From assembly GCA_027340875.1 (NCBI GenBank), contig DAIENX010000007.1:32001-96000 (forward strand): a DNA stretch of 64,000 bases. Direction: 5' to 3'. Below, in pieces: positions 1-13,656 of the stretch (within the stretch, counting starts at the first letter, position 1; each line of letters starts with the position of its first letter). The notes under the pieces are model-generated. The model did not search any database and was not told the DNA's origin. It saw only the letters and a list, made by a program, of their open reading frames with translations. The position numbers and the translations under genes were made by a program. The DNA is from Elusimicrobiota bacterium. Its GTDB lineage: Bacteria > Elusimicrobiota > Elusimicrobia > Elusimicrobiales > UBA9959.

Positions 1-1354
1 AGCAGCCGTCCAGGCAGGTGGAGCTGACCACCACCGGCACGCCGCTGGCCTTCTCGGCCTCGCCGGCCAGCTTCCGCACGTCCTCGCCCATAGCGTAAGG
101 TACGCAGCCGTTGGTCATGAAGATATAATCCGGCCTTCCTCCGGCCAGGTCCGCGGCGATATCCCTTATGCGGCCGCCGCTGCCGAGTATCACTTCCCCT
201 GTGCCCAGCGCGCTGGAGCTCCTGGTGGAGCCGGCTTCCGGGTGCAGCTCGCTGCCGGGCAGCAGGCTGGCGGGACCGCGCAGGAACGGGACCTTCTCGC
301 TCTCCTCCAGCCGCTCCTGGCTGTAGGCGCATTCCCTGTCCTCGTGGGCCAGGAAAGCCTGCCGCCCGGTGTAGCGTACCAGCCCGGTGCCGGAGAAGAC
401 GGCGTCCGAGAAGAAGCGGCGCCAGCCGTCGCCGGCGCCCGAGGGCGGCCTGGCGGGCGAGGAGATCTTGAAGGACGCCCCGCAGGCCTCCGGCGCGTGG
501 CAGGCAGCGGGCACGTCGGGCGGGGCGGCCGGAAGCACGCGCGGCTTCTTCCCGCGGCCGGAGAGCAGCGGCAGCAGTATCCTGCCGTCCACCGGCCGCG
601 GCAGGGAGCCGGCGGCATCGGAAGCGTCCAGGCCGGCCTTTATCCTCCTGACCGCCGCGGCGAAAGGCGAGCGCGGGGCCAGGCGCACCACCGCGGCCCC
701 GGCGGCTTCGGCCTCCCTGACCGCCGGGTCCAAAGGACAGCGGGCCAGTATGCCGGCCTTTATCAGCGCGGCGAACTTGTCCACGGCGCCGCCGCGGCCG
801 CCGTCCGCGCCGTTGGCCACCAGCCCCATCAGGCCGGCGCCGCTGCCGGCGTGCACGGTCATCGCGCGGGCTATGTTGTTGGCGGCGTAGAGTGACATCA
901 GGTCTTCCGAGACCACTATCAGCACCTTGCGCCCGAAGCCTTTTCTCAGCGGCACGGCGAAGCCGCCGCAGACTATGTCGCCCAGCACGTCGAAGATCAC
1001 CGCGTCGTAGTCGGCGGCCACCTTCTCGCGGGCGGATTCCAGCAGCTCGAAGGTCTTCAGCAGGCCCATGCCGGCGCAACCCTCTCCCGGAGCGGGGCCG
1101 CCGGCCTCCAGGCAGTCCACGCCCCTGCCTGTCCTGTAGATCAGCTTCTCCAGCGTCGGGCGGCCGCCGCGCAGCGCCTCCACCACGGTCGGGATGCCCT
1201 CGCCGCCTGTCAGCAGCAGCGCGGAATCGCTCTTCGGGTCGCAGCCCACGTGCAGGACCCGCTTGCCCTCCATGGCGTACAGCTCGCTGAGGTTGGCTGC
1301 TATGGTGGATTTGCCTATCCCGCCCTTGCCCAGGATGACGATGCGCTCAGACAT
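1..1354 (-). CDS. Nitrogenase Fe-protein (NifH/BchL/CfbC family) paralog fused to a nitrogenase component-1 (NifD/E/K-like) domain; 3' end outside the window
   Basis: Hand translation from ATG at 1354 gives MSERIVILGKGGIGKST, VGCDPKSDS, EAGGPAPGEGCAG, FDVLGDIVCGGFAVP and MSLYAANNI (Fe-protein motifs incl. both cluster Cys). The frame stays open through a Pro-rich linker into HEDREC...EVILGSGGRI...PDYIFMTNGCVPYAMGEDV...GVPVV. Not in the ORF track because there is no stop before position 1. Confidence 0.9.
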   Translation of the reverse strand, partial: MSERIVILGKGGIGKSTIAANLSELYAMEGKRVLHVGCDPKSDSALLLTGGEGIPTVVEALRGGRPTLEKLIYRTGRGVDCLEAGGPAPGEGCAGMGLLKTFELLESAREKVAADYDAVIFDVLGDIVCGGFAVPLRKGFGRKVLIVVSEDLMSLYAANNIARAMTVHAGSGAGLMGLVANGADGGRGGAVDKFAALIKAGILARCPLDPAVREAEAAGAAVVRLAPRSPFAAAVRRIKAGLDASDAAGSLPRPVDGRILLPLLSGRGKKPRVLPAAPPDVPAACHAPEACGASFKISSPARPPSGAGDGWRRFFSDAVFSGTGLVRYTGRQAFLAHEDRECAYSQERLEESEKVPFLRGPASLLPGSELHPEAGSTRSSSALGTGEVILGSGGRIRDIAADLAGGRPDYIFMTNGCVPYAMGEDVRKLAGEAEKASGVPVVVSSTCLDGC

Positions 1355-2366
1355 GTCCCACCGCCTCTCCCGCGGCCGGCCGGGCGCGCAGTATCCGGGC
1401 CGCGGCGGCCGCGGGGATGGGGCGCAGTTCGCCGTCGCCGAACCTGTCGAGGTAGGCCCCGAAGACCCCGGCGCAGCGGTCCGCCAGCGCGCAGCCCGAG
1501 CAGCGCTCCGTCCTCGTCCGCTTCAGCGGCGGGACCACGCTCTTCTTAACCGAGAGCACGTTCTCCTTCAGGTAGGAGCGCCCGCGCTCCAGCACGAGCC
1601 GCGGGGAGAAGAGCAGGTCGTTGGAGAAAGGGGCCAGCGGGCCCAGCGCGCAGAAAGGGGCCCCGGAGACGACCAGGCGGGCGCCGTTGGCGCGTATGGT
1701 CCCGGCGGCTGAACGCACGGCGCGCGCGAAGTCCGGCAGCCTCACGGTCAGGCTCCCGTAGGAGGAGCGCACGTTCCCCCACGGTATCAGCTGCGACATC
1801 ATGTAGACCCCCGGCCGGCCGCGGGAGAAGACGTACTTCGCTATGTCCGCCGTTCTCCCGGAGTTGAGGGAGCAGACCACGGTGTGGCACATGAACAGCT
1901 TGAGCTTCCCGAAGCGTTCCACGTTCGAAAAGACCTTTTCGACCGTGGAGAAGGCGGACGGCATCCGCGTGACGGCGCGCGCCAGTCCCTCTTCGTTCCA
2001 GTGCACAGAGAGGCAGAGTTCGTCGATGTCCGGCAGCAGCCGTGCCGCCGCCGCGGGGTCGGCCAGTCCCGTGCCGTCGGTGGTGACCTGCACCGAGTAG
2101 CCCAGCAGCTTGGCTATGCGCAGTATGCGCCCGAACTGCGGATGCACGGTGGGCTCCCCGCCCAGCAGCGTCAGGTGCCCGGCGCCGCCGCTCCGGAGCT
2201 TCTTCATTATCGAGCAGGCCTCCGCGAGCGGCATGAAGCCGCCGCCGGAGCGCAGGCTGCGCGCCTCGCAGCAGAAGACGCAGCGGCGGCGGCAGACCTT
2301 GGAGATCCGCAGCTCGGCCCGCTCCCCGGCGGCGCCGGGGGCGCTCAGTAGGTCCTCTCCGTGCAT
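1347..2366 (-). CDS. Radical SAM protein (HxsC-like) with C-terminal Cys cluster
   Basis: CRRRCVFC (CxxxCxxC), GGEPT, TTDG; C-terminal CSGCALADRCAG. Start is ATG 2366 or CTG 2348. Confidence 0.9.
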   Translation of the reverse strand: MHGEDLLSAPGAAGERAELRISKVCRRRCVFCCEARSLRSGGGFMPLAEACSIMKKLRSGGAGHLTLLGGEPTVHPQFGRILRIAKLLGYSVQVTTDGTGLADPAAAARLLPDIDELCLSVHWNEEGLARAVTRMPSAFSTVEKVFSNVERFGKLKLFMCHTVVCSLNSGRTADIAKYVFSRGRPGVYMMSQLIPWGNVRSSYGSLTVRLPDFARAVRSAAGTIRANGARLVVSGAPFCALGPLAPFSNDLLFSPRLVLERGRSYLKENVLSVKKSVVPPLKRTRTERCSGCALADRCAGVFGAYLDRFGDGELRPIPAAAAARILRARPAAGEAVGHV

Positions 2367-3076
2367 ATGTTGTACTTCACGTAATTGGGCGCGCGGTCCT
2401 CGCGCACCCGGCTGTCCACGGCCCGCTGCTTCCGCGGCCTGGCCCCGTCCGGCCTGAGCGCGGCGTAGTCCACGTGCGTGTCCGTCTCGTTCTCCTTGAG
2501 GTCCCAGACCGCGCATTTCAGCCCGAGCGCCATCATCCCGGAGACGGTCTCCTTTATCCTGCCCTGGTTGGCCTTCAGGCGCAGCGTGTGCATCTCTATC
2601 CTAGTGCCGGGAAAGGACTTTATGTTCTTTATGGCCTTCAGCAGGGCCGCGTAGCTGCCTTTCTTCCTGGTCACGGCGTCGTGCACGGCCGCGTCCGGCC
2701 CGTAGACCGGCAGCAGGAAGGCGTTGACCCCGGCCGCGACCAGCGCGGCCGTCAGCCGGCGGCTGCGCAGCTTGACGCCGTTCGACATCAGCTCTATATA
2801 GGCGAAGCCTTCCTTCACTCCCATCCTGACCACGGACTCCAGCAGCCACGCGGGGGCCATCGTGGGCTCGTCGCCGCCGAGGCAGAGCCGCCTGACTCCG
2901 CGCCGGCGGAGCACCCGCATCAGCGCGAGGAAGCGTATCAGCACCTCGCGCCACCGCTCCTCGGTGAAGGTGAAGGAGGTCTTGTGCGGGTGCCTGTTCC
3001 GCTGGCAGAAGACGCAGTCGATGTCGCAGCCGAACGGGAACGCCAGCAGCAGCTTGTCCTCCTTCCTGGCGTTCAT
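2345..3076 (-). CDS. Short radical SAM protein (243 aa) without a C-terminal auxiliary Cys motif
   Basis: CDIDCVFC, GDEPT, MSNG, HDAVT; GGAGG RBS and ATGA overlap with the upstream stop at 3073-3076. Confidence 0.9.
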   Translation of the reverse strand: MNARKEDKLLLAFPFGCDIDCVFCQRNRHPHKTSFTFTEERWREVLIRFLALMRVLRRRGVRRLCLGGDEPTMAPAWLLESVVRMGVKEGFAYIELMSNGVKLRSRRLTAALVAAGVNAFLLPVYGPDAAVHDAVTRKKGSYAALLKAIKNIKSFPGTRIEMHTLRLKANQGRIKETVSGMMALGLKCAVWDLKENETDTHVDYAALRPDGARPRKQRAVDSRVREDRAPNYVKYNICTERTY

Positions 3077-4059
3077 GCGGCCTTCACCTCCGTTATGGGA
3101 CGGAAGAAAGGGGCCTGCTCCGGGAAGGCCTCGAGATACTTCCGGAAGATGCCTCCGCAGGAGCGCCGCAGCGCGCAGCGGCCGCAGGACTTCAGATAGA
3201 CGCGCCGCCGCGTCGGGCGCAGCGAGACCGTCTCCTTCAGGCCGGCGCGCCCGCCGGGGAGCGCCGCCCTCTCCACGGTCAGCCGCGGCGAGTAGTAGAG
3301 GTCGTTGGAAAGGTCGTAATGACCGTTCAGCGAACAGGCCGGCGCGCCGAAGAAGCGCAGCGTCACGCCGAACAGCGCGGCCTGCTCCCGCAGGTCCCCT
3401 ATGCGCCGGCCTATGGCGGTGAGGTCCGGAGCCAGCGAGGCGTAGTCCTCGCAGGCGCCGCCCTCCGGGGCCGGGTTGGAGATCATGTAATGCCGGACGA
3501 ACCCAGAGCGGGAGACCAGGCGCAGGATGTCCGAGACCAGCTTGAAGTTCTTTTTGACGGCCACGGTGTTGACCATCAGGAACAGCCTGCCGCCGCCGGC
3601 CTTGCCCAGGTTGTCCAGCGCGGCCATGGCGTCGTCGAAGCTGCCCTTCCTGCCGGTCAGCGCGTCGTGTATCTTGGCCGTAGGTCCGTGGCAGGAGAGC
3701 ATGGCCTCGTCCAGCAGCGGCGCGGTACGGCGGACGAAAGCGGGATCGGCGAAGGCGAGGCCGTTGGTGGTGACGCTGGTCCTGAACCCAAGCGCCCTGG
3801 CCGCACCGAGGGCGGCCGGCAGCGCGGCGCACAACGACGGCTCTCCTCCGGTGAAAGTGACGTGGGAGAAGCCGGCCCTGCGTTTCTCGCGCAGGATGCC
3901 TGCTATCTCCGACCCCGTCAGGTCCAGCGAGCCGAACCGGCGCAGCCTGTTCCGCTCGCTGCAGAACAGACAGCTGTTCTCGCAGGTGTAGGAAACGTGT
4001 ATCTCCAGCCGCTCCACCGCGGCTTTCTTCGCTCCAGCGCCGTGTACCGTTCGGCTCAT
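3073..4059 (-). CDS. Radical SAM protein (HxsC-like) with C-terminal Cys cluster
   Basis: CENSCLFC, FTGGEPS, TTNG, HDALT; C-terminal CGRCALRRSCGG; ATGA overlap at 4056-4059. Confidence 0.92.
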   Translation of the reverse strand: MSRTVHGAGAKKAAVERLEIHVSYTCENSCLFCSERNRLRRFGSLDLTGSEIAGILREKRRAGFSHVTFTGGEPSLCAALPAALGAARALGFRTSVTTNGLAFADPAFVRRTAPLLDEAMLSCHGPTAKIHDALTGRKGSFDDAMAALDNLGKAGGGRLFLMVNTVAVKKNFKLVSDILRLVSRSGFVRHYMISNPAPEGGACEDYASLAPDLTAIGRRIGDLREQAALFGVTLRFFGAPACSLNGHYDLSNDLYYSPRLTVERAALPGGRAGLKETVSLRPTRRRVYLKSCGRCALRRSCGGIFRKYLEAFPEQAPFFRPITEVKAA

Positions 4060-5183
4060 GCGACGCACCTCCCGGAACGGACCGGCTTCAACGCCGAGAA
4101 ACCCCTGGCCATCACGGTCCATATCCTGGCTCCGCGGCAGGCCGGGCCCAGCCGGCAGCGTCGGCAGGCGGAACCCTTCACGGTCAGCCTCTCCGCTATG
4201 AAGAACTCGGCCACCTTCATCAGGCCGGCCCTTGGCGTTATCTTTTTCACGGCCCTCCGCTTCTCCGGCAGGCAGGCCGGCGCCGGGACCGTCTTAAGGG
4301 AACCTTCCGCCCGCAGCAGCTCGAGGTCCGAGCAGAACTGTGCCATCACGCAGGACGCGCACCGCGCCCCCTTGCAGTGCATCTCCTCTCCGGCGTACAG
4401 GAAGGCCTCCAGCGGCCGGCGCATCCCCCGCACCTCGTCCATCAGCTTGCCGGGGTGCTGTATATACCGCTCGTTGCCCTCCAGCACTGCGGCGGGGAAG
4501 CGGTTCGTCCAGACGTGGGCGTTGACGGATTCGGAGAAGCGGAACACCTTTTCCAGCACCTTCCTCTTGGAAGCCGGGTCATAGGAAAGTTTCTTCCAGT
4601 TCTCCCACGCCCTGCCGAAAGGTATCAGGTTCAGCAGGTCGTACTCGTCCACGCCGAGGCGGTGCAGCAGGCCGACTATCTCGCGGACGGAGTCGGCGTT
4701 AAGCCTGTTCACCACGATGTCGCTGCTGACTATCAGGCCCGGCACCTTCTTGGCGTTGGCGATGGCCAGCAGGGTCTGCGCGAAAGCGCCGGGGACCCCG
4801 ACCAGCGCGTCGTGCTGCCCGGAGGTGGCCCCGTGCACGGAGAACGTTATCTCGGTGAGCCCGGCGGCCACAGCGCGCTTCAGAAAGCCATCGTAGCAGA
4901 ACATCCGCCCGTTGCTGATGGCCTGCACGTGGGTATAGCCGAGCTTCCTCGCCTTCGCCACTATGGCCGTGAATTTGGGGTGTATCGTGGGCTCTCCGCC
5001 GCTCAGCACCACCCGGCGGCAGCCCTCCGCCCGGCCCCGCCTCAGGTCGGCCTCTATCTCTCCGAGCGGCAGATGTTCGCCGCAGATGGAGTCCGCGTCC
5101 AGACAGAAAAGGCAGCGGTTGTTGCAGGCCCTGGTCAGCCTGACCCATTTCCGCTTTTCCGGGGCGGCGGTTCTTTCCGTCAT
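4056..5183 (-). CDS. Radical SAM protein (HxsC-like) with two C-terminal Cys clusters
   Basis: WVRLTRACNNRCLFCLD, SGGEPT, ISNG; C-terminal CKGARCASCVMAQFC and CRRCRLGPACRG; ATG at 5183. Confidence 0.92.
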   Translation of the reverse strand: MTERTAAPEKRKWVRLTRACNNRCLFCLDADSICGEHLPLGEIEADLRRGRAEGCRRVVLSGGEPTIHPKFTAIVAKARKLGYTHVQAISNGRMFCYDGFLKRAVAAGLTEITFSVHGATSGQHDALVGVPGAFAQTLLAIANAKKVPGLIVSSDIVVNRLNADSVREIVGLLHRLGVDEYDLLNLIPFGRAWENWKKLSYDPASKRKVLEKVFRFSESVNAHVWTNRFPAAVLEGNERYIQHPGKLMDEVRGMRRPLEAFLYAGEEMHCKGARCASCVMAQFCSDLELLRAEGSLKTVPAPACLPEKRRAVKKITPRAGLMKVAEFFIAERLTVKGSACRRCRLGPACRGARIWTVMARGFSALKPVRSGRCVA

Positions 5184-5187
5184 AGTT

Positions 5188-6135
5188 CTATCCAAGAAGT
5201 ATCCTCTCTGCCAGCCTGTCCGCGGCCATCCCGCCGGCCACGGCCTTGGCCCCGAAAAGCTTCTTCGCCATGCCGGAGTAATCAGGACGGCGTCCGCTCC
5301 CGGCGCCCAGAGCCTCCAGCCCGCCGGCCAGCATCTGCGCGGCCTGGCCCGGGTCCCTCGCGGCAAGGACGAGGTTGGAGTGATAGCACCTGCCGTCAGT
5401 GTCCACCGTGGTCCCGGGATTGAAAAGCGGCACCGGGCCTTCGCGCGAGGCGTTCTCGATGACAACGGCCCCGGAATCGGCCAGTTCCCTGATATGCCTC
5501 AGCGCCCTGGCGAGCTTGGCGAGGGCGGCCGGCGTCCATTCCCGGTAATAGGCCGGCAGGACGTTGACCCTGGGCGGTCGTCCGCGCGAAGCGGCTATCA
5601 CGCGCTTCAGGACCCCGAGCGAAGAAAGCGGGTCGCGCTCGGGCAGCAGCAGGTTCCAGATCAGGTTGGGCAGGGCCGCGAACCTGCGGCTGACGCTCAC
5701 CGAGGAGTTAATGTTCACCTGCACCCACGGCCGGGCCGAGAAATACCGGAGCTTCGCCGCGTCCAGCAGCAGGCCGTTCGTGCCCACCTCCGCGCGGCCG
5801 CGGTAGCCGGCCGCCTCCAGCATGCCTATGCCAGTCCTCACCAGCCCGAAGCGCAGCAGCGGCTCCCCGCCGAAAAACTTGACCGCGCCGCCCCCCAGGG
5901 CGGCGGAACAATACTGCTTTATAGCGCTTTTCAGGACCGCCGCGGGCATGTCCGCCCGCCCGGTCGCGACGGGACATTCGGGGCACGCCGACTGGCAGCG
6001 CCGGGTGAGGATAAGGGTCAGCTGCGGGGCCGGCGCGCCCCCGCGGCAGGCCGGAAGGGCCGAGTTACTGGCCCTTCGCCGGTTCCTTTCCTTTGGTCTG
6101 CTTGCCCTGCGGCTGTACGCCCATCCTCTTGTCAT
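5188..6135 (-). CDS. Radical SAM protein, start codon uncertain
   Basis: LTRRCQSACPEC, FFGGEPLL, GTNGLLL; the ATG at 6135 lies inside the upstream gene, so the true start may be later. Confidence 0.8.
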   Translation of the reverse strand: MTRGWAYSRRASRPKERNRRRASNSALPACRGGAPAPQLTLILTRRCQSACPECPVATGRADMPAAVLKSAIKQYCSAALGGGAVKFFGGEPLLRFGLVRTGIGMLEAAGYRGRAEVGTNGLLLDAAKLRYFSARPWVQVNINSSVSVSRRFAALPNLIWNLLLPERDPLSSLGVLKRVIAASRGRPPRVNVLPAYYREWTPAALAKLARALRHIRELADSGAVVIENASREGPVPLFNPGTTVDTDGRCYHSNLVLAARDPGQAAQMLAGGLEALGAGSGRRPDYSGMAKKLFGAKAVAGGMAADRLAERILLG

Positions 6136-7114
6136 CTTCAGCCTTCTGCTTTACCATGTCGGCCATTATCTTGTGGCGGAACGAGCTCGTGCAGTAGCCG
6201 GTGGCGAGCTTCTTGGCCAAAGGTGCGCAAACCGACGGGTCCCTGGACTGCAGCACGTGGAGCAGCCATTTCTCGTCCGGGGTGGAATCCCCCCTCACCA
6301 GCGCGGCGCTGAGCTGGCATTCTTTCTTCCGCGGGCCGCTCAGTTTGCCGCAGGCCGCCCGCCCGTTGATGAACAGGAAGTTGGATTCGCAGTTGGGCGG
6401 CAGACCGAGCGAGCGGCACTCCGGGGTCCGCCTCTTCGCGATAGAGTCGGTAATGAACCGACAGAAGTCGGGGCTGGGACGCCCCCCCCTGAACGCGTTG
6501 TTAACGAACTTCTCGCATTTCCCGTCGTTCGTCTTCCTGTTCAGGGCCGAATACATGAAATCGTAGTAATCGGCGGCGAAACAGACCCTCTCCAGGTTCT
6601 GCTGGACGCAGTCGAGACGGCCACCGCTGATAAGCCGGCAGACGCCGTAGTCCAGGAAGAGATCGAGTATAGTCTCATCCTCGGGCATGTTGCTGTTGGT
6701 ATTGAAGAAGAACCGGAAGTTCTTGTCGAAATGCCTGACGATAGCGTCCGGGTTGTCCGAGAAGGCCTTTATACAGTCGCTGTCGGCCGCGTTCACCGGG
6801 ACGTCCTCTGGCTGGGAATAATACCCGCCGGAGGCGCTTTCGTACTGGCCGCTCTGGGGGATATTGCTCTGGGTATCGGTCGACGCCTGGCTGACCAGCG
6901 CGGCGGCGTCCGGAGGAAGCGCCTGGCCGACCTCCTGTTGCTGGGCCGCGGGGTAGGCCGGAGCCGCCGGCTGCTCGATGCCTATCTTCGCGGCGTTCCT
7001 GTCGGTGACCATCTTCAGGGCGAAAAGCACGCCCATCAGCGCCACCAGCAGGCCGATAAGCAGCTTCGGGGACATCGCCCCGGGTCTGTAGCCTTTCCTC
7101 ATCGCGCTCACCAT
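6065..7114 (-). CDS. Membrane-anchored, Cys-rich (12 Cys) hypothetical protein, probably extracytoplasmic
   Basis: N-terminal hydrophobic segment LLIGLLVALMGVLFAL, Q/P/A-rich linker, 12 spaced Cys and no CxxCH; start overlaps the precursor stop. Confidence 0.8.
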   Translation of the reverse strand: MVSAMRKGYRPGAMSPKLLIGLLVALMGVLFALKMVTDRNAAKIGIEQPAAPAYPAAQQQEVGQALPPDAAALVSQASTDTQSNIPQSGQYESASGGYYSQPEDVPVNAADSDCIKAFSDNPDAIVRHFDKNFRFFFNTNSNMPEDETILDLFLDYGVCRLISGGRLDCVQQNLERVCFAADYYDFMYSALNRKTNDGKCEKFVNNAFRGGRPSPDFCRFITDSIAKRRTPECRSLGLPPNCESNFLFINGRAACGKLSGPRKKECQLSAALVRGDSTPDEKWLLHVLQSRDPSVCAPLAKKLATGYCTSSFRHKIMADMVKQKAEDDKRMGVQPQGKQTKGKEPAKGQ

Positions 7115-7404
7115 TGCCCGTGGCTGCCGTGCGAACCGTGCGAACCGTGCGAGCCGTGGCTGCTGTGCGAACCGTGCGAACCGTGCGAGGCGTGACTCAC
7201 GTGGCCCGACGCGTTGCCGCTGCTGTGGAAGTAGTTTGCATGCGCTAGCGCGTCAGCGTGCTCTGTCACCACTCCGACGGCGGTGGCTACCAGTCCGAGG
7301 ACGACCGCGGCCTTGACCACGTCGCTCTTGACTATCTTGCCCTCCTCGCTCGAAAGGAAGCGGGAAAGGTCTACCGACAGTTTCTTTTTCTGTTTTCCGG
7401 CCAT
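7108..7404 (-). CDS. hxsA: His-Xaa-Ser repeat precursor peptide (HxsA-like), 98 aa
   Basis: C-terminus HVS-HAS-HGS-HGS-HSS-HGS-HGS-HGS-HGS-HGQW; basic plus hydrophobic leader; directly downstream of an HxsB-like radical SAM gene. Confidence 0.9.
   Translation of the reverse strand: MAGKQKKKLSVDLSRFLSSEEGKIVKSDVVKAAVVLGLVATAVGVVTEHADALAHANYFHSSGNASGHVSHASHGSHGSHSSHGSHGSHGSHGSHGQW
7123..7203 (-). repeat. Nine tandem 9-bp units encoding the His-Xaa-Ser array
   Basis: Degenerate cgaaccgtg units on the + strand. Confidence 0.9.
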
Positions 7405-7423: not shown

Positions 7424-8893
7424 CTATACGTGTATCCCGGCCGCTCCGGCGCTGCTGCCGGCCCAGGATTCGAACAGCTTCCTAACCTTCGGCTCGCGCA
7501 GCCGCGCGAACAGGTAGTCCATCACTCCGGTGTAGATCTCGCACCGGAAGTTGGGATGATGCATGTACAGGTCGTTGTGCTCCGAATAGTTGAAGACCGG
7601 GCATACGCCGCAGTAGGGCTTGTAGACGCAGGAGGAGCAGAGCGTCTGTATGTCCGTGACCGACGCGGTGACCACGCATTTCACCACTGAGCTCGACGCC
7701 AGGTCCGCGTAGGTCTCCTTCTTCAGGTCGCCCATGCAGAACGAATCGGTCCCCTCCGCCGCCAGCATGCGCCCCTCGTCGCAGGTGAAGACGCGGCCGT
7801 CGTAGTCGTAGGCGATCTGGCCTATCCCCGCCCCGCAGGGGGACCGGAGGTCCATGAAGTTCGGGTCGGTGCCGGTCAGGATCTTCCTCAGGAATATCCT
7901 GGCCGTGTGCTCGACCAGGGAGGCCTTCTTCTTCAGGTTCAGCTCTATGATGTAGTCCAGCGCCTTCGTGTAGAACTCTATGTACTCCCGCGCCGTGTAG
8001 CCTATCCCAGGCCAGGCCTTCTTCGCCGCGCCGAACGGATTGAGGAAGCGCAGGAAGATGGAGCGGGCGCCGATGCGGACGTATTCGTCCACTATGTCCT
8101 TGTGGCGCCCCAGGGACTGCTGCGTCACCGTGAGCAGGGCGTCCGGCCCGTTCTTGGTCCTGGCCGTGCGCTTCTTGATGGTCTTCCACCACTTCACGAC
8201 CTGGGCGTGGCTGCTGCCGCCGGTGGCCACCCGGTTCTTGTCGTGCAGGTCGGCGGGACCGTCCAGCGAGGTGCAGATGGCGACGTTGTGCTTGAGCAGG
8301 AAGTTCAGCCTCTCTCCGGTCATGGCCGACAGGTTGGTGACCAGGCTCAGGCTCACCTTCTTATCGAAGGTCTTCGTGCGGGCGGCGGCCTCGTTGACCA
8401 CGAACTCCAGCACGGGCCAGTTGAGCAGCGGCTCCCCGCCCTGGAACTCTATGGTGATGTTGTCGGCCGGGGAAGCGAAGATGGCGTCCAGCACCCTGGA
8501 GGCCGTCTCCCTGTTCATGTCCAGGCCGCGGCCGCTCCTCTTGGACGAGGCGTGGCAATACACGCAGTCGTGGTTGCAGCGCCGCGTCAGCACGGCTATG
8601 TGCAGCGCCGGGCCGGAGAAGAGGAAATGGTTCTTCTCGAGCCACCTCTCGGCCAGGCCGGAAAAGTCCATGTAGTCGCGGACGAGGCCCTTGCGGGAGA
8701 GGTCCTTGTACTCAGCCGAGTCCTTGTCCAGCTTGCCGGCCGCCAGCCGCGAGAAGACATCGCCGGAGATGAAGGCGTGCTCGCCTATGTCGTTGGTGAC
8801 CAGGTATTCGTCGCCCCACTTCTTGTAGCGCAGAAAACCGGTCTTCTTCGGGTCGAAGTCAATTCTTTCTTTTTGCTTTTCTGGCCTTCGCAT
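7424..8893 (-). CDS. hxsB: His-Xaa-Ser system radical SAM/SPASM maturase HxsB
   Basis: CNHDCVYC, IEFQGGEPLLN, TSLDGP; SPASM-type DLRSPCGAG...TCDEGRM...CSSCVYKPYCGVCP...C; lies between the HxsD-like and HxsA-like genes. Confidence 0.9.
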   Translation of the reverse strand: MRRPEKQKERIDFDPKKTGFLRYKKWGDEYLVTNDIGEHAFISGDVFSRLAAGKLDKDSAEYKDLSRKGLVRDYMDFSGLAERWLEKNHFLFSGPALHIAVLTRRCNHDCVYCHASSKRSGRGLDMNRETASRVLDAIFASPADNITIEFQGGEPLLNWPVLEFVVNEAAARTKTFDKKVSLSLVTNLSAMTGERLNFLLKHNVAICTSLDGPADLHDKNRVATGGSSHAQVVKWWKTIKKRTARTKNGPDALLTVTQQSLGRHKDIVDEYVRIGARSIFLRFLNPFGAAKKAWPGIGYTAREYIEFYTKALDYIIELNLKKKASLVEHTARIFLRKILTGTDPNFMDLRSPCGAGIGQIAYDYDGRVFTCDEGRMLAAEGTDSFCMGDLKKETYADLASSSVVKCVVTASVTDIQTLCSSCVYKPYCGVCPVFNYSEHNDLYMHHPNFRCEIYTGVMDYLFARLREPKVRKLFESWAGSSAGAAGIHV

Positions 8894-9320
8894 TTTTGTT
8901 TTCTTCCCACGGTATGGCTATTCCCAGAGCATCGGTCTTGTAGTCGCCGCTCTCCGCCTCTTTCAGCAGCTTCTCGATCTCCTTCTCCAGCTCCGCGTCC
9001 AGCACCGGGGCGGCGGCCGCCGGTTCCGCGGGTCTGGGCTGCGCGGAAAGAAGGGCCCTGACCACTATCCTCTCGCGCAGGGCCTGGTTCACGGCCGAGA
9101 CCTTGAGGCGGAAAGCGTGGTGCAGCAGTTCGTTGCGGAACTCGCCCTCCAGGTCGCGGCCCGCCGGGAACTTGCCGTTCTTGGACTCCAGCACGGCCGA
9201 GAGAGCGCCGCCCTTGTCCTTGCCCAGCTTCACGTACGCGGCCTTGGAGAACGTGTATGCCGCGGCATAGACGCACTCGATAGGGTAAACGGAAAGATCT
9301 ATCTTCACCTGTATTTTCAT
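8859..9320 (-). CDS. hxsD: His-Xaa-Ser system protein HxsD
   Basis: YPIECVYAAAYTF...GEFRNELLHHAFR...NQALRERIV pattern and position directly upstream of hxsB. Confidence 0.8.
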   Translation of the reverse strand: MKIQVKIDLSVYPIECVYAAAYTFSKAAYVKLGKDKGGALSAVLESKNGKFPAGRDLEGEFRNELLHHAFRLKVSAVNQALRERIVVRALLSAQPRPAEPAAAAPVLDAELEKEIEKLLKEAESGDYKTDALGIAIPWEENKNAKARKAKRKN

Positions 9321-9339: not shown

Positions 9340-9903
9340 TTATCTCAACCTGCAGCAAAGCATTTCGCCAGTAGCCTGTATACCGCCGGGAGGGCCCATC
9401 TGGTACATCTGGTTGCCGACGCGGGCGGCCACTACGGCGGTCTTGGCGCCGAGACACATCGTGACGACGCCGTAAGAATAGCTCTGCCAGGAACAGTCCA
9501 GCGGGACCGTCGGGTCGGACCAGCGGGCCAGGCCGTTGCCGTCCGAGGTAAGCAGCCGGCCGTTGGCCTGCGTGCCGTCCTGCAGCTCGAAGCTGCCGAC
9601 CACGTGGAGTTTTGCGGCCGGGGAAGGGGTGCCTATTCCAACATTGCCGCCGTCCCTGGCCAGCAGGGTCTGGCTGGTGGTAAGTATGCTGACGTAGCCG
9701 CCGTAGGGGGCAGGGTAATAAGTGGTCAGCGTAAGCGTCTCGGAGCCGATGAAGCCCGGATGCCAGCAGATGAACATGAGGGCCATCAGCGCCACCACCG
9801 TCTTCCGGTGCGTCCTGCCGAGCCTGTCCAGCCAGGCAGGCAGGCCGGGCTGGTGAAGCCAGTCCAGCGAGAACCTTATAACGATATCGCGGTTATTTTT
9901 CAT
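9340..9903 (-). CDS. Membrane-anchored hypothetical protein with TLTTYYPAPYG and GNVGIGT motifs (fibre/adhesin-like)
   Basis: Hydrophobic segment VVALMALMFICW, ETLTLTTYYPAPYGGY, GNVGIGTPSPAAKLHV, C-terminal Cys residues; 19 bp upstream of hxsD. Confidence 0.7.
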   Translation of the reverse strand: MKNNRDIVIRFSLDWLHQPGLPAWLDRLGRTHRKTVVALMALMFICWHPGFIGSETLTLTTYYPAPYGGYVSILTTSQTLLARDGGNVGIGTPSPAAKLHVVGSFELQDGTQANGRLLTSDGNGLARWSDPTVPLDCSWQSYSYGVVTMCLGAKTAVVAARVGNQMYQMGPPGGIQATGEMLCCRLR

Positions 9904-10088
9904 AGTCGCCGCCCCCGATAAGCGCGAAAAGCACATCCTTGCGCAACGGCCCCTACGGTCGGGACGCGTTGCATATCACACGGACCGCCACGGGCTTGCT
10001 CCCATGGCACTCACCGATCCGGATTTCGTTCGCGCGCCTACGCGCATGCTAGCCATCCGCCGGCTTACGCCGGCGATACTTCGACTAT
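9902..10088 (-). ncRNA. Candidate structured 5' leader RNA of the hxs operon
   Basis: Nested inverted repeats 9902-9908/10082-10088 and 9922-9928/10029-10035; hairpins 9943-9972, 9987-10008 and 10058-10075; lies between promoter and first ATG. Confidence 0.5.
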
Positions 10089-10095
10089 ATTATTA

Positions 10096-10124
10096 ATTAT
10101 AGCAGAAATCTTTCCGATTTTCAA
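10096..10124 (-). promoter_or_regulatory. Sigma70-type promoter of the hxs/radical SAM operon
   Basis: Minus strand reads TTGAAA-N17-TATAAT with an extended -10 (TGcTATAAT). Confidence 0.8.
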
Positions 10125-10254: not shown

Positions 10255-11733
10255 TCAGCTGCCGGCCTTTATCCCTCTCGACCTGACGAACTTGTCGAGG
10301 TCGAACTTCTCGAAGGGCTGGTAATTCTTCTGCCGCCAGGGCTTGTTGGTGATGAAGCTCCAGCCCATCTTGATGAACATGTTGAGGTAGGTCCTATGGA
10401 GCGGCTTCTTCGAGAAGAAATAGTTCCCGAGGAACTTCCTGTTCACGATAAGTGCCTTCCCGATCCATTTTTTATAGTACTTGTCGGCCTCCCCGACCGA
10501 CATATCCGCGGTCCTGGTTATCGCGTTGAGCCAGTTGAACTGCGAGAAATCCGTCACCTCTATCGCGCCCATCTTCTTGCATTCGTCGTAATAGGGGGTG
10601 CCCGGCAGCGGCGTGGTGAAATCCGGGCCCACGATGTCGCAGTTCTCGATCAGGAAGTCGAGGGTATTGTGCAGGTCCTCCTTGGTATCCCACGGACTGC
10701 CCCACATCAGCATTCCCATGATTATGAAATTGTGCTTCTGGGCTATCTTTATGGCCTTGTTTATCACCTCGAGGGTCTGCGGCTTCTGCAGCCTTTGCAG
10801 TTCGCTGGGCTTCGAGGTCTCTATCCCCAGCATGATCTGATACACGCCTATCTCGTTGAGGTCCTTCATCAGGCTCTCGTTCCTGATCACGTTGAAGCAG
10901 GTCGTCTGTATCCACATCAGGACGCCCAGCTTCCTGGCCCGCATGAGCTTTATGAACTCCCGGGTGCGGTCCTGGTCGTGGAGGAAGTCGTTGTCCCCGA
11001 CGTAGAAGACCTTTTTGCCGTATTTCTTGCTCAGCAGCTCGAGCACGTCCACCATGTACTTCGCCCCGTGCCCGCGCCAGGAATGCTGCCAGTGTATGGC
11101 CTCGCTGCAGAACCTGCAGTGCCCCACGCAGCCCCTCGCGAAATTCACGGTGAAGCCGACCTTGCCGCCGAACGGGGCCAGGCCGTACCTCTCCATCGGG
11201 AACAGGTCGAAGGCGGGCATCGGGAGCTCGTCCAGGTCCTTTATCATCGGCCGAGGGGCGTTCTTTACGGCCTCTCCGTCCTTGAGCCAGGCCAGGCCTT
11301 TTATCCCCGAAAGGTCTCTCTCCTTCTTCTCCACGGCCCGGAGCAGCTCCATCAGCGTGACCTCTCCCTCGCCCGTGACGATGTAATCGAACAGCCCGCT
11401 TTCAAGGGCGTCCTTCCACATGTAGGAGCCCATATAGCCGCCGGTCACTATCTTGGCGCCGGGCAGCACCTTTCTCGCTATCTTCGCGGCGTTCACCGTA
11501 TCCTGCCAGAAAGCCGTTACCGACCCGGTTATGGCCACGACGTCCGGCCGCTCATTATCGAGCGTCTCCGCCGTTCTGTCCCATGGCTTATCGGGCGCGA
11601 CGGCGGCGTCGAAGACCTTCGTTTCGAACTCTTTCCTGGCTACCGCGGCGAGGTATATGAGCGACGGCGAGGCCGTCACGCCCCTGAAAAATTCCCAGTA
11701 TTGGTGGAGCGGTTCAAGAAAAAGGACTTTCAT
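10255..11733 (-). CDS. Cobalamin-binding radical SAM protein (class B methyltransferase/BchE-like architecture)
   Basis: N-terminal B12-binding-like domain (LIYLAA...PDVVAIT...VTGG...DYIVTGEGE), then ARGCVGHCRFC, GIET, TPLPGT. Confidence 0.9.
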   Translation of the reverse strand: MKVLFLEPLHQYWEFFRGVTASPSLIYLAAVARKEFETKVFDAAVAPDKPWDRTAETLDNERPDVVAITGSVTAFWQDTVNAAKIARKVLPGAKIVTGGYMGSYMWKDALESGLFDYIVTGEGEVTLMELLRAVEKKERDLSGIKGLAWLKDGEAVKNAPRPMIKDLDELPMPAFDLFPMERYGLAPFGGKVGFTVNFARGCVGHCRFCSEAIHWQHSWRGHGAKYMVDVLELLSKKYGKKVFYVGDNDFLHDQDRTREFIKLMRARKLGVLMWIQTTCFNVIRNESLMKDLNEIGVYQIMLGIETSKPSELQRLQKPQTLEVINKAIKIAQKHNFIIMGMLMWGSPWDTKEDLHNTLDFLIENCDIVGPDFTTPLPGTPYYDECKKMGAIEVTDFSQFNWLNAITRTADMSVGEADKYYKKWIGKALIVNRKFLGNYFFSKKPLHRTYLNMFIKMGWSFITNKPWRQKNYQPFEKFDLDKFVRSRGIKAGS

Positions 11734-11925
11734 TACGGTTTCTCCCTGCTGGCCGGCCGCAAGATCGAACGCGGCTCCGCGTCATCCCTCCTCACGACGG
11801 GAACACGGAACCCCGCATCTACAAACTACCACATTACTGACCCTTAAGCCAAGAGCGGCGGCTTTCATCGGGAGGGGCGCGGGACAGTTGGTCCCGCGGC
11901 GTCCGCAGTGCCGCGGTCCAGGGTA

Positions 11926-11954
11926 TTGACAGCCGCCGGGTTTCGTCTTATAAT
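11926..11954 (+). promoter_or_regulatory. Perfect-consensus sigma70 promoter
   Basis: TTGACA (11926-11931), 17-nt spacer, TATAAT (11949-11954). Confidence 0.9.
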
Positions 11955-11981
11955 CGGATTATACGGGTGACAGGAGGAAAG

Positions 11982-12092
11982 ATGCCTGCGATCGCTAAAT
12001 CTCCGGTAAAACCGGCTAAAAAACTGAACAAAACGCTGAAAGCGGACAAGAAACTGTCGCGGTACTGCCGTTCCGGCAGGGTTCTCTGGTAA
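11982..12092 (+). CDS. 36-aa putative RiPP precursor MPAIAKSPVKPAKKLNKTLKADKKLSRYCRSGRVLW
   Basis: AGGAGG at 11972-11977, ATG 11982, TAA 12090-12092; sits between the consensus promoter and a SPASM radical SAM gene; too short for the ORF track. Confidence 0.8.
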   Translation: MPAIAKSPVKPAKKLNKTLKADKKLSRYCRSGRVLW

Positions 12093-12094
12093 AC

Positions 12095-12154
12095 CGGTCC
12101 GATAACGCGACGAAGTCCCCGTAACCGCGGGGACTTCTCGTTTCCAGCGGACCG
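12095..12154 (+). promoter_or_regulatory. Long intergenic hairpin between precursor and maturase (attenuator/stabiliser)
   Basis: gaagtccccg 12112-12121 / cggggacttc 12128-12137, plus outer cggtccg 12095-12101 / cggaccg 12148-12154. Confidence 0.7.
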
Positions 12155-12168
12155 TCAAACGGAGAAAG

Positions 12169-13656
12169 ATGGCACAAAAACCGGCATTCCTCTTCGAGAA
12201 ACTCGGGCGCCGCATCGGCGTCTCTACCGGCACCGGCGATTTCTACGAGCTGTCCCCTGCCGTCTACAAGGCCCTTAAGAAGTGGAATAGCGCGATCGAA
12301 GAAAAGGGCGGAAAACTCTCGACCGCGGCGGCGGAAAAGCTGGCCCGCGGCTTTTCGGTCCCGGCGGAGATCTCCGCTCTGTTCCCGCTGCGCGCCGCCA
12401 GGTCCGGGCCTCCCGACATCCGCGCCCGCCTGACCGACCTGACGCTGAACATAACCTCCGACTGCAACCTGCGCTGCGTCTACTGCTGGAACGATACCGG
12501 GAAATATTCGAACGGTTCGTTCAAGAAGGCGAAGAGCGCCCGTCCGGAAGCCGCGGCCTGCCCTCCCCCGATGTCCGTGGAAACGGCCTGCCGGGCCGTG
12601 GACCTGCTGGTCAAGATGAGCCGCGGGGAAAAACAGCTGGTCGTGGATTTTTACGGCGGGGAGCCTCTTAAGAACCTGCCCACGCTCCTGGGCGCGGTCG
12701 CCTACTGCAAGGCCCTGGGAAAGAAAACGAACATCCGGTTCCATTTCCTGCTGGCCACCAACGGGACCCTGCTGACCCCGGCGCTGGCCGAGAAGCTGCT
12801 GGGACTGGGGGTACAGATAGCGGTAAGCGTGGACGGCCCCAGGAAGCTGCACGACCGGAACAGGCCCTTTCACGACGGGAAAGGCAGCTTCGCCGCGATA
12901 GCGCGAAACCTGCGGAACATGCGTCCGGAGACGAGACGCAGGCTGGTCGGGAGGACGACCGTCACCCCTTACTACACGGACATGGTCGCGCTTTACCGCA
13001 ACCTAAAGGACCTGGGGTTCGAGCGCGTGGAGATCTTCGAGAGCGAGGACGCGTGCCACAAGATAACCCCGGGGAGGGAAGCCGTTTTCTTCCACAAGGA
13101 AAAGGACTTCCGCAGGATCCTCGGGGAGTACGATCTGCTGGCCGGGAAATATTCGGACGAGGCCGTAAAGGGCGTCCTGGATTACGGAAAGACCTTCTTC
13201 AACAGGTTCTTCAAGCTGATGCAGAGGCTTTATTACAACCAGCAGGTCACCGGCGGGTGCCCGGCGGCCCAGGGCCAGATAGCGGTGTCGTCCGACGGCG
13301 AGATCTTCCCCTGCACCTCGTTCATAGGGATAAAGGCCTTCTCCCTCGGGAACGTGCACTCCGGGCTGGACCGCAAAAAACATCTCTCGCTGCTGCGGAA
13401 AACCGCCGGAAGGTTCAGGAGGTGCGCCGGCTGCGAGATCTTCAGCGTCTGCGGGACCACCGGGTCCTGCCTGAACATCAACCATTATTTCAACGGGGAC
13501 GTATCCAGGCCTCATGCCAGGAGTTGCAGGCTGTTCACGGAAAAGATAAAGCTGGCCATGGCCGTGCTCGCCGACCTTTCGGAAAGGATGCCGGACAGGC
13601 TGGAGGCTCTTTTCGGCCACGATCCCGTAGGACGTAGAGGGAACGAACTCTATTGA
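12169..13656 (+). CDS. Radical SAM/SPASM peptide maturase with N-terminal RRE-like extension
   Basis: CNLRCVYC, DFYGGEPL, TNGTLL, SVDGP..HD..R; SPASM-type GCPAA...DGEIFPC...CAGCEIFSVCGTTGSC...C; about 85 aa precede the core. Confidence 0.9.
   Translation: MAQKPAFLFEKLGRRIGVSTGTGDFYELSPAVYKALKKWNSAIEEKGGKLSTAAAEKLARGFSVPAEISALFPLRAARSGPPDIRARLTDLTLNITSDCNLRCVYCWNDTGKYSNGSFKKAKSARPEAAACPPPMSVETACRAVDLLVKMSRGEKQLVVDFYGGEPLKNLPTLLGAVAYCKALGKKTNIRFHFLLATNGTLLTPALAEKLLGLGVQIAVSVDGPRKLHDRNRPFHDGKGSFAAIARNLRNMRPETRRRLVGRTTVTPYYTDMVALYRNLKDLGFERVEIFESEDACHKITPGREAVFFHKEKDFRRILGEYDLLAGKYSDEAVKGVLDYGKTFFNRFFKLMQRLYYNQQVTGGCPAAQGQIAVSSDGEIFPCTSFIGIKAFSLGNVHSGLDRKKHLSLLRKTAGRFRRCAGCEIFSVCGTTGSCLNINHYFNGDVSRPHARSCRLFTEKIKLAMAVLADLSERMPDRLEALFGHDPVGRRGNELY

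Follow-up and report, generated by a model that had tools for sequence, protein, structure and literature searches.

The window analysed here is a 64,000-nt stretch of an Elusimicrobiota metagenome bin (G000:C65:32001-96000). At its left edge lies a minus-strand gene that encodes, in one chain, an Fe protein of the NifH type and a catalytic domain of the nitrogenase component-1 type. We consider it likely that this gene specifies a reductase of Group VI of the nitrogen fixation-like (NFL) proteins, in which the Fe protein, NflH, is tethered to the catalytic subunit, NflD, and which works with a separate NflK partner. The reading is built on sequence comparison and structure models. The three parts are called H, D and K below, and the fused protein HD. 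The source bin has 2.8 Mb in 112 contigs (completeness 92.45, contamination 5.49).

The fused gene and its reading frame

Positions 2..1354 of the window hold the first 451 of the gene's 738 codons, the gene being open at the left edge. The remainder lies to the left of the window at C65:31138-32000, i.e., L003:11138-12000, where L003 is the segment C65:20001-36000. With the upstream contig included, the full open reading frame (ORF) is L003:11138-13354 on the minus strand, 738 codons with no internal stop. An earlier note, made from the letters of the window, had read a NifH-like Fe protein and a component-1-like domain in one frame and had proposed extending the contig leftward. Pfam and fold comparisons agree with that reading, and the extension supplied both the whole ORF and a partner gene, P0002. 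The fused gene overlaps its neighbours at both ends: by 8 nt at its start codon, with the stop codon of the radical SAM gene upstream, and by 20 nt at its stop codon, with the start of P0002. P0002 (L003:9868-11157, minus strand) encodes an NflK-type component-1 partner of 429 aa (Oxidored_nitro, E 5.5e-41).

The H domain, residues 1-265 (560..1354, minus strand), is a complete NifH-type Fe protein. Pfam Fer4_NifH matches residues 4-265 (E 1.5e-65; 221.8 bits, gathering score 25), and the domain has the Walker A motif GKGGIGKS, the switch I and switch II Asp residues, and the cluster ligands Cys93 (nt 1076-1078) and Cys129 (nt 968-970), both on the minus strand. It is followed by a linker of about 60 residues (~266-330; 365..559, minus strand) that is rich in Pro, Ala, Gly and Ser. 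The D domain, residues ~331-738, has the component-1 fold; its start occupies 2..364 on the minus strand, and Oxidored_nitro matches residues 379-628 (E 1.1e-14; 54.6 bits, gathering score 28.6). The motifs singled out at the outset all lie where they had been placed: GCAG with Cys93, VCGGF with Cys129, HEDREC at residues 337-342 (nt 329-346), and NGCVPYAMGED at residues 415-425 (nt 80-112).

The AlphaFold2 (AF2) model of the full chain has a mean predicted local distance difference test score (pLDDT) of 81.4 and a predicted TM score (pTM) of 0.71. Residues 269-307 fall below a pLDDT of 50, and in the model this segment is a presumptive disordered tether. Foldseek matches listed for the full chain are all Fe proteins, the best being that of methylthio-alkane reductase (MAR), 9fmg_E (E 3.7e-21, target TM 0.87). 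The D domain modelled alone (308-738) reaches a pLDDT of 86.7 and a pTM of 0.87. Its Foldseek matches, 150 of them at E 0.001 or better, are NifEN, NifD and MarD chains, with NifEN 9ian_B the best at E 2e-15. VIA-align superposes it on residues 55-479 of NifD 9cje_C with Z 25.1 and a root-mean-square deviation of 3.6 over 351 residues; 162 of 1000 chains reach Z >= 8, and cofactor-less NifD forms score highest. A component-1 fold is thus matched past residue ~320, the point from which the earlier note had wanted it checked. BchN, BchB and CfbD chains are not among the 50 matches listed by Foldseek and VIA-align, which has no bearing on their exclusion.

The reading frame was followed through the linker in assembled reads. 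The linker DNA, L003:12365-12559, is crossed by Logan contigs of all four runs, with zero indels inside the ORF, and one contig (X3 record 17) spans 11249-12595 with 0 differences. The frameshift or stop for which the linker was to be checked is absent from the run contigs. The four runs belong to one mine-drainage study and may be the very samples from which the bin came, which makes them a check on the assembly software and not on the underlying data. Two further runs, X5 and X6, contained a fraction of just 0.06 of the sampled words and do not enter this comparison; none of the data sets listed for the gene is of RNA. In two of them (X1 and X2), contigs swap 116 nt of linker at L003:12434-12551 (window 434-551) for 119 unrelated nt, in frame. 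They represent a linker variant from a co-occurring strain and suggest a tether whose sequence can drift freely. A second feature of the same contigs is a rise of about 10-fold in summed depth in all four runs (97-154 vs. ~5-30) at L003:12934-13030 (window 934-1030). The peak covers the switch II and Cys129 region and probably comes from contigs of other NifH-like genes of the community.

The earlier note had implied that the fused layout is rare. It is not. In a 5.8-billion-protein collection, 157 relatives at E 0.001 or better were found among 8,000 scored candidates; 120 were listed, and 116 of these carry both Pfam domains in one chain of ~700-1,090 aa. The same public collection includes an identical 738-aa protein (P0004) and a GenBank protein, 85% identical, from an Elusimicrobia metagenome-assembled genome (MAG; P0005). 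Complete fused ORFs occur at 12 of 80 loci from representative genomes, isolates among them, namely Clostridium tetanomorphum DSM 4474 and Methanosarcina sp. KYL-1. At all 12 loci, the next ORF is component-1-like.

Lineage of the H, D and K parts

The H domain scores under every NCBIfam equivalog cut-off: CfbC 222.3 bits against 402, NifH (TIGR01287) 213.4 against 394.35, BchX 177.3 against 331, and BchL 170 against 345. P0002 scores 41.5 bits against 420 for BchN and 36.4 against 490 for BchB. Placement was made with trees from IQ-TREE quick searches, supported by the Shimodaira-Hasegawa-like approximate likelihood ratio test (SH-aLRT) only, with reference Fe proteins labelled by NCBIfam (NifH, CfbC, BchL, BchX and two Group IV copies).

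In the H tree (69 domains, LG+C20), the query belongs to a clade of six rows, all fused, with support 100. This clade is enclosed by one of 34 rows (support 92) in which 21 fused proteins are joined by 13 unfused NflH-like proteins from Elusimicrobia, Myxococcota and Deltaproteobacteria. Set apart from it is an all-fused clade of 13 rows (support 97), with methanogen, Clostridium, Oscillospiraceae and Treponema proteins and a set of proteins with two H domains (H-H-D). The same division is found in the 66-row D/K tree. There, 21 Group VI fused D domains and two unfused myxobacterial D proteins form a 23-row clade (support 100), and the remaining fused D domains are united in a clade apart, of 13 rows (support 98). 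The K partners separate as well, that of the query into a 5-row clade (100) and those of the other fused set into a 4-row clade (99).

The query's clade contains the Elusimicrobia genomes GWA2_69_24 (P0018) and GWF2_62_30 (L051), both named in the paper that defined Group VI; the link to Group VI is made through these named genomes. In these trees, H, D and K all fall in Group VI, apart from Nif, Cfb, Group IV and Bch, and the Group VI fusion and the methanogen/Firmicutes fusion are separate lineages. Since starred branches of the H tree force at least two changes of the fused state, the fusion arose or was lost more than once.

The two unfused Group VI NflD proteins (L049:10815-12923 and L022:10804-12918, both from Myxococcales MAGs) each have an N-terminal extension of ~280 residues without a Pfam match. 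With a length close to that of H and the linker combined, the extension is possibly the degenerate remnant of an Fe-protein domain.

In Méheust 2020 (bioRxiv 10.1101/765248), Group VI is defined, up to 13 neighbouring radical SAM genes are described, and tetrapyrrole reduction is proposed as the function. According to a 2026 review (Chem Rev, PMC13474568), no Group VI member has been characterised, and NflH, NflD and NflK are treated as separate proteins. The words "fused" and "fusion" have 0 occurrences in that review. In the main text of Méheust 2020, to which this statement is limited, they are applied to radical SAM-B12 domains and a hydrogenase only and not to NflHDK. Our protein shares with published Group VI NflHDK an Elusimicrobia host (its best relative, 85% identical, is from an Elusimicrobia MAG), together with the lack of NifB, an incomplete set of P-cluster Cys residues, the lack of ligands for the iron-molybdenum cofactor (FeMo-co), and dense radical SAM genes. 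It differs in having H and D in one chain rather than three separate proteins, in the loss of a docking residue, Arg100, and in its Hxs neighbours (both treated below).

Fused proteins of the other kind have been noted in print. Dos Santos et al. 2012 (PMC3464626) mentioned NifH-NifE-like fusions without data and dropped them from their trees, and Borrel et al. 2014 (PMC4153887) used a "fused nifH/nifE" gene as a landmark. A literature search for a fused NflH-NflD returned only the 2012 paper and an unrelated MarB-NflX fusion. Like our gene, the 2012 fusions have H and D in one ORF and a K/N-like gene adjoining; unlike it, they fall in H, D and K clades of their own and keep Arg100 in 40/40 rows.

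The catalytic interface and a proposed working

In an alignment (MAFFT) of the query and 119 relatives, Cys93 and Cys129 of the H domain are kept in all 120 rows. The D domain has only two conserved Cys residues, Cys342 (nt 329-331) and Cys417 (nt 104-106), each present in 118 of the 120 rows, with gaps in the other two. Cys342 ends an H-x4-C motif with the family consensus HGDxEC, and Cys417 begins a C-x5-G-[DE]-D motif, of which the query has the GED form. No conserved Cys or His is found in the C-terminal half of the D domain in this alignment.

The K family is large: 525 representatives match at E <= 0.001, of which 262 reach 1e-30. Cys42 is the one Cys that it conserves, in 136 of 139 aligned relatives. 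Among the same relatives, Asp38 is conserved at 90%, His54 at 97% and Asp55 at 98%; with Asp32 included, the range is 89-98%. D and K are paralogous (hhalign probability 99.9%, E 6e-32). K-Cys42 aligns opposite D-Cys342, and D-Cys417 has no counterpart in K. The divergent ligand set that had been suggested from the motifs therefore holds up, as two conserved Cys in D and one in K.

A complex of D (308-738), K and a 4Fe-4S cluster was modelled, with a score of 0.78 against 0.00 for the best of 3 controls; among solved complexes 116 of 157 attain that mark, compared with 2 of 215 mismatched pairs. Between runs, no fewer than 76% of contacts are shared, and the pLDDT of the partner does not drop below 86. 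Residues at the modelled interface include 339-345 and 417-418 of D and 39-42, 51-53, 56 and 106-108 of K. In this prediction, K docks on the face of the D domain where the conserved Cys residues lie. Three interface Cys residues and a presumed non-Cys ligand fit a simple [4Fe-4S] cluster, not a P-cluster.

The nearest analogues in this respect are the Group V enzymes, dark-operative protochlorophyllide oxidoreductase (DPOR; BchL with BchN/BchB) and chlorophyllide oxidoreductase (COR). They too have an ATP-driven Fe protein and a single inter-subunit [4Fe-4S] cluster with one non-Cys ligand, the DPOR ligands being three Cys and an Asp. The query differs in that its Cys residues are split two in D and one in K, not three and none, and in the lack of a photosynthesis context.

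A further likeness to DPOR is in the H domain. The docking residue Arg100 (A. vinelandii numbering) is absent from the query, which has Met96 (nt 1067-1069, minus strand) at this position, three residues after the first cluster Cys. According to the 2026 review (PMC13474568), Arg100 touches both NifD and NifK, is needed for nitrogenase catalysis, and is kept in all nitrogenase and NFL Fe proteins with BchL/ChlL as sole exceptions. Most of the fused Group VI proteins aligned here depart from this rule. In an H alignment of 190 rows, Arg occupies position 100 in only 11 of 30 fused but 35 of 36 unfused Group VI rows, in all 40 rows of the other fused clade, and in 79 of the 82 that remain. The Walker A Lys, Asp39, Asp43, Asp122, Asp126, Cys93 and Cys129 are retained in all 30 fused Group VI rows. 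Counted over 120 fused proteins, Arg100 is lacking in 34, of which 33 are in Group VI subclades. The replacements are Met or Leu in the query's clade and Ala, Thr, Leu, Val or Tyr in an Elusimicrobia clade of proteins of 790-875 aa. A tether in place of free association fits the loss of Arg100 in the query's fused subclade.

A nitrogenase proper would have an H domain of NifH equivalog score, NifB, NifEN, the three alpha-subunit P-cluster Cys residues, and the Cys and His that hold FeMo-co; the query and its genome fall short on each of these. In a profile search of the genome itself, which is 92% complete, the best nifB match has 20.5 bits against a cut-off of 343.65. The component-1 genes are two only, the fused D and K. 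There is one NifH homologue at 225 bits, and two other matches (25.1 and 21.3 bits) cover the P-loop end only. Together with the lack of C-terminal Cys and His in D, the absence of nifB and of further component-1 genes makes a substrate other than N2 likely, as the earlier note had proposed.

The [4Fe-4S] cluster of NifH-type proteins is bridged between two chains. Because the sole NifH homologue of this genome is fused, two HD chains must pair. With one H per D/K pair, there can be at most one H dimer per two D/K units, and we infer an (HD)2K2-type assembly. It follows that "single-chain", the term used in the earlier note, does not describe the enzyme: the cluster needs two HD chains, and the K subunit, whose gene overlaps the stop codon, is predicted to bind D.

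The proposed working is as follows. Two HD chains would pair through their H domains, with Cys93 and Cys129 of each chain holding one bridging [4Fe-4S] cluster, and each D domain would pair with one K subunit. At the pseudo-twofold D/K interface, D-Cys342, D-Cys417, K-Cys42 and one non-Cys ligand may hold a simple Fe-S cluster; the fourth ligand could be one of the nearly invariant K residues His54, Asp55 and Asp38. Electron flow to the D/K cluster, and on to a non-N2 substrate, would be gated by the hydrolysis of MgATP in the H dimer. The tether, not diffusion, would bring the H dimer to the D/K face.

A functional parallel to the tether is provided by CfbCD, the Ni-sirohydrochlorin a,c-diamide reductive cyclase of Group IV-B, whose CfbC and CfbD reportedly stay together in a persistent complex (PMC13474568). 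CfbC is also the best NCBIfam model for the H domain, at 222.3 bits. This score is, however, far under 402, the D domain lies in another clade, and CfbD works without a K-type partner (PMC13474568).

The H-H-D proteins of the methanogen/Firmicutes fused clade have ~1,085-1,093 aa (L021:2627-5884 from a Myxococcota MAG, P0010 and P0011), with two Fer4_NifH domains followed by a component-1 domain. They would place a whole Fe-protein dimer and a catalytic subunit in one chain, another solution to the same stoichiometry problem.

Several points weigh against the assignment and working given above. The placement of H in Group VI has an SH-aLRT support of 92, from a quick search, on an unstarred branch. 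The prediction may owe its high score to NifDK, NifEN, BchNB and MarDK structures already solved and learnt by the model, and the alignments supplied to it and the riding ligand are outside the scoring calibration. The [4Fe-4S] cluster at the D/K site is itself inferred, with candidates only for its fourth ligand. Finally, with Arg100 lost, the H domain might have given up the classical mode of docking.

The fused gene is a natural test case and not a new kind of enzyme. In the accepted view of nitrogenase, the Fe protein binds, hands over a single electron and departs. The need for dissociation has been questioned for some nitrogenase-like systems (PMC13474568). An Fe protein that is tied by nature to its catalytic subunit makes the question testable, and this case is the sharper because the genome has no NifH copy besides this H domain, from which the docking Arg100 is gone. 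A ratio of one H per D/K pair also means that two D/K units have at most one H dimer between them. The gene is of value, then, both for what nature has tried out in Fe-protein docking and as a way into the function of Group VI.

The Hxs neighbourhood and the substrate

The fused gene lies in a same-strand run of ~22 kb that includes 13 genes with a radical SAM domain. The order is a promoter-like site, a 198-aa ORF, an HxsD-like gene, HxsB, HxsA4, a membrane protein, five radical SAM genes, HD and K, and then seven radical SAM genes and two unassigned ORFs. All are on the minus strand. The promoter-like site (10096..10124) reads TTGAAA-17 nt-TATAAT, with TG before the second hexamer, and is a match of 11/12 in a consensus scan only. 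The 198-aa ORF (9340-9936) has no NCBIfam match. Next are an HxsD-like small protein (8859..9320; TIGR03976, 48.2 bits, just under the cut-off of 50), the radical SAM/SPASM maturase HxsB (7424..8893; TIGR03978, 489.4 vs. 370), and HxsA4 (7108..7404), a protein of 98 aa that ends in His-x-Ser repeats (NF038313, 64.4 vs. 55). The predicted membrane protein (6065-7114) has a hydrophobic N-terminal segment and no NCBIfam match.

Four radical SAM genes, assigned by Pfam and NCBIfam, lie at 5188-6135, 4056-5465, 3073-4122 and 2345-~3100, and a fifth, the first upstream of the fused gene and adjoining it, at 1347..2516 (Pfam Radical_SAM); all five are HxsC-like paralogues. The two ORFs at L003:5932-7143 and L003:422-1351 have neither NCBIfam nor Pfam matches. 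For the radical SAM paralogues the best NCBIfam models are HxsC and HxsC4, although the scores amount to 41-104 bits where the cut-offs are 268-500. Terminator-like sites are at shuffle level (8 vs. 8.1 expected, and 6 vs. 7.2 expected), and a single operon is neither supported nor broken by them.

In canonical His-Xaa-Ser (HXS) systems, the order is HxsD-HxsB-HxsC-HxsA, the function is anti-phage defence, and HxsA receives a +8 Da modification, of the +C/-4H type (Li et al. 2026, PMC13128918). The query locus shares with them an HxsB and an HxsA-type repeat protein that score over the cut-offs and an HxsD-like protein just under its own. It differs in the A4 type of its repeat, in having about a dozen HxsC-like paralogues vs. 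one, and in the embedded nitrogenase-like enzyme. The word "nitrogenase" does not occur in the canonical HXS paper (PMC13128918), and a literature search for His-Xaa-Ser together with nitrogenase found no paper.

We tentatively favour the view that the substrate comes from the surrounding Hxs/radical-SAM pathway, i.e., that HD and K reduce radical-SAM-modified HxsA4 or a compound derived from it. The HxsD-like, HxsB and HxsA4 genes head the same-strand run, 6 kb upstream, and HxsC-like radical SAM genes flank HD and K on both sides. The arrangement recurs in a myxobacterial MAG (L049), where one strand carries an HxsD-like gene, HxsB (477.5 bits), NflH, NflD, NflK, HxsA4 (93.5 bits) and an HxsC4-like gene. 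When this order is compared with the canonical one, the NFL genes sit in the place of HxsC, inside the Hxs cluster. In a sample of 201 genomes of the phylum, 12 (families f1, f5 and f7) have high-scoring NFL matches, full-length fused in nine; nine further genomes, from other families, have separate and weaker matches. HxsB is present in 11 of the 12 high-scoring genomes and is within 20 kb on the same contig in seven of them.

The linkage has its own difficulties. Ten of the 21 f1, f5 and f7 genomes with HxsA4 and HxsB lack a high-scoring NFL match, and a single family accounts for six of the seven genomes with linkage, which are thus not independent. The Group VI genome G154 has no HxsB match, and in the myxobacterial L022 no Hxs or paralogous radical SAM match was found within 10 kb. 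Canonical HXS works without a nitrogenase-like enzyme, we know of no nitrogenase-like enzyme that acts on a peptide, and a shared radical SAM island may be the sole link. A genome of the query's own genus (G124) has Hxs genes and no NFL match, but its HxsB is 47% identical, and the locus is too diverged for a clean insertion or deletion of HD-K to be visible.

A wider conjecture, and a rather doubtful one, can be stated. Group VI would carry out ATP-driven tailoring of a ribosomally synthesised His-Xaa-Ser repeat protein or of a cofactor made from it, and the tethered HD without Arg100 would cycle without dissociation, one H dimer serving the two halves in turn. If true, this would be the first nitrogenase relative on a peptide-derived substrate.

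What has been published for Group VI, by analogy with DPOR, COR and CfbCD, is the proposal of a tetrapyrrole reductase with a new cofactor as its product; we regard it as unlikely for this locus. Méheust et al. argue from phylogeny and from neighbouring B12-binding and HemN_C radical SAM genes (bioRxiv 10.1101/765248), and the proposal is repeated in the review (PMC13474568). The genome does have hemB and hemC, and a BchE-like B12-binding radical SAM gene lies at 10255-11733 on the minus strand (213.8 bits, under the cut-off of 481). However, the Hxs-NFL run has its promoter-like site shortly downstream of this gene, hemB and hemC are on another contig, and none of the tetrapyrrole genes is in the cluster. 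The radical SAM paralogues are closest to HxsC and HxsC4, not to heme or chlorophyll enzymes. No cobalamin riboswitch was found at the six of six Group VI loci searched, nor, at gathering score, at any of seven methanogen/Firmicutes fused-clade loci. HEM4, the profile for uroporphyrinogen III synthase, was not found either, which in a genome that is 92% complete is not evidence of absence.

The two genes stand side by side (hemC and hemB, G000:C14:10335-12841), with the hemC match in an open frame of 529 aa. This frame is long enough to hide a diverged hemD that the HEM4 profile would have missed.

We rank the Hxs pathway first as the source of the substrate and tetrapyrroles second, and leave the remainder to other substrates. 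The Hxs linkage gives Group VI a concrete substrate hypothesis, unlike the published tetrapyrrole idea.

It is improbable that HD and K are a cluster-assembly scaffold, like NifEN with NifH, instead of a substrate reductase. NifEN is among the best fold matches (besides 9ian_B, 9i0g_A at Z 23.7), the VIA-align scores are topped by cofactor-less NifD forms, and NifH has maturation roles, all of which would fit such a scaffold; but the genome has no NifB and no downstream client component-1 protein, and the three conserved Cys residues are accompanied by no conserved cofactor ligands. Least credible, to the point of being negligible, is an assembly or sequencing artefact that joined neighbouring nflH and nflD genes, as might be suspected of a 112-contig metagenome bin with 5.49% contamination in a family where unfused NflH (~273 aa, ~50% identical) is common: a different assembler carried the ORF across the linker in four of four runs without indels, the strain variant keeps the frame, the two-domain form is found in 116 of 120 relatives and in isolate genomes, and all members of the query's six-row H clade are fused.

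The Group VI family is already in print, and the fused layout is in databases and has been briefly noted. Not found in the literature are the separateness of the Group VI fusion from the 2012 lineage, the two-plus-one Cys pattern at the D/K interface, the loss of Arg100 in fused Group VI subclades, and the recurrent Hxs linkage.

Some genomes carry further copies of the fused gene. In Elusimicrobia RBG_16_66_12, a second H-D copy, upstream of an intact one, is found in two overlapping ORFs (L010:6210-7949 and 7763-8722), the former with H and the first 110 positions of D and the latter with the rest of D. It has the look of a fused gene broken by a frameshift, or of a misassembly. Some Elusimicrobiota genomes have as many as four fused copies (G182:C42:8125-10752; G178:C27; several places in G180). 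Several H-like or fused matches in these three genomes carry internal stop codons and may be pseudogenes or recoded. In a Methanomassiliicoccaceae MAG, a group II intron domain match (L040:5308-5376; 49.8 bits, gathering score 40) lies 4 kb upstream of the fused H-D gene.

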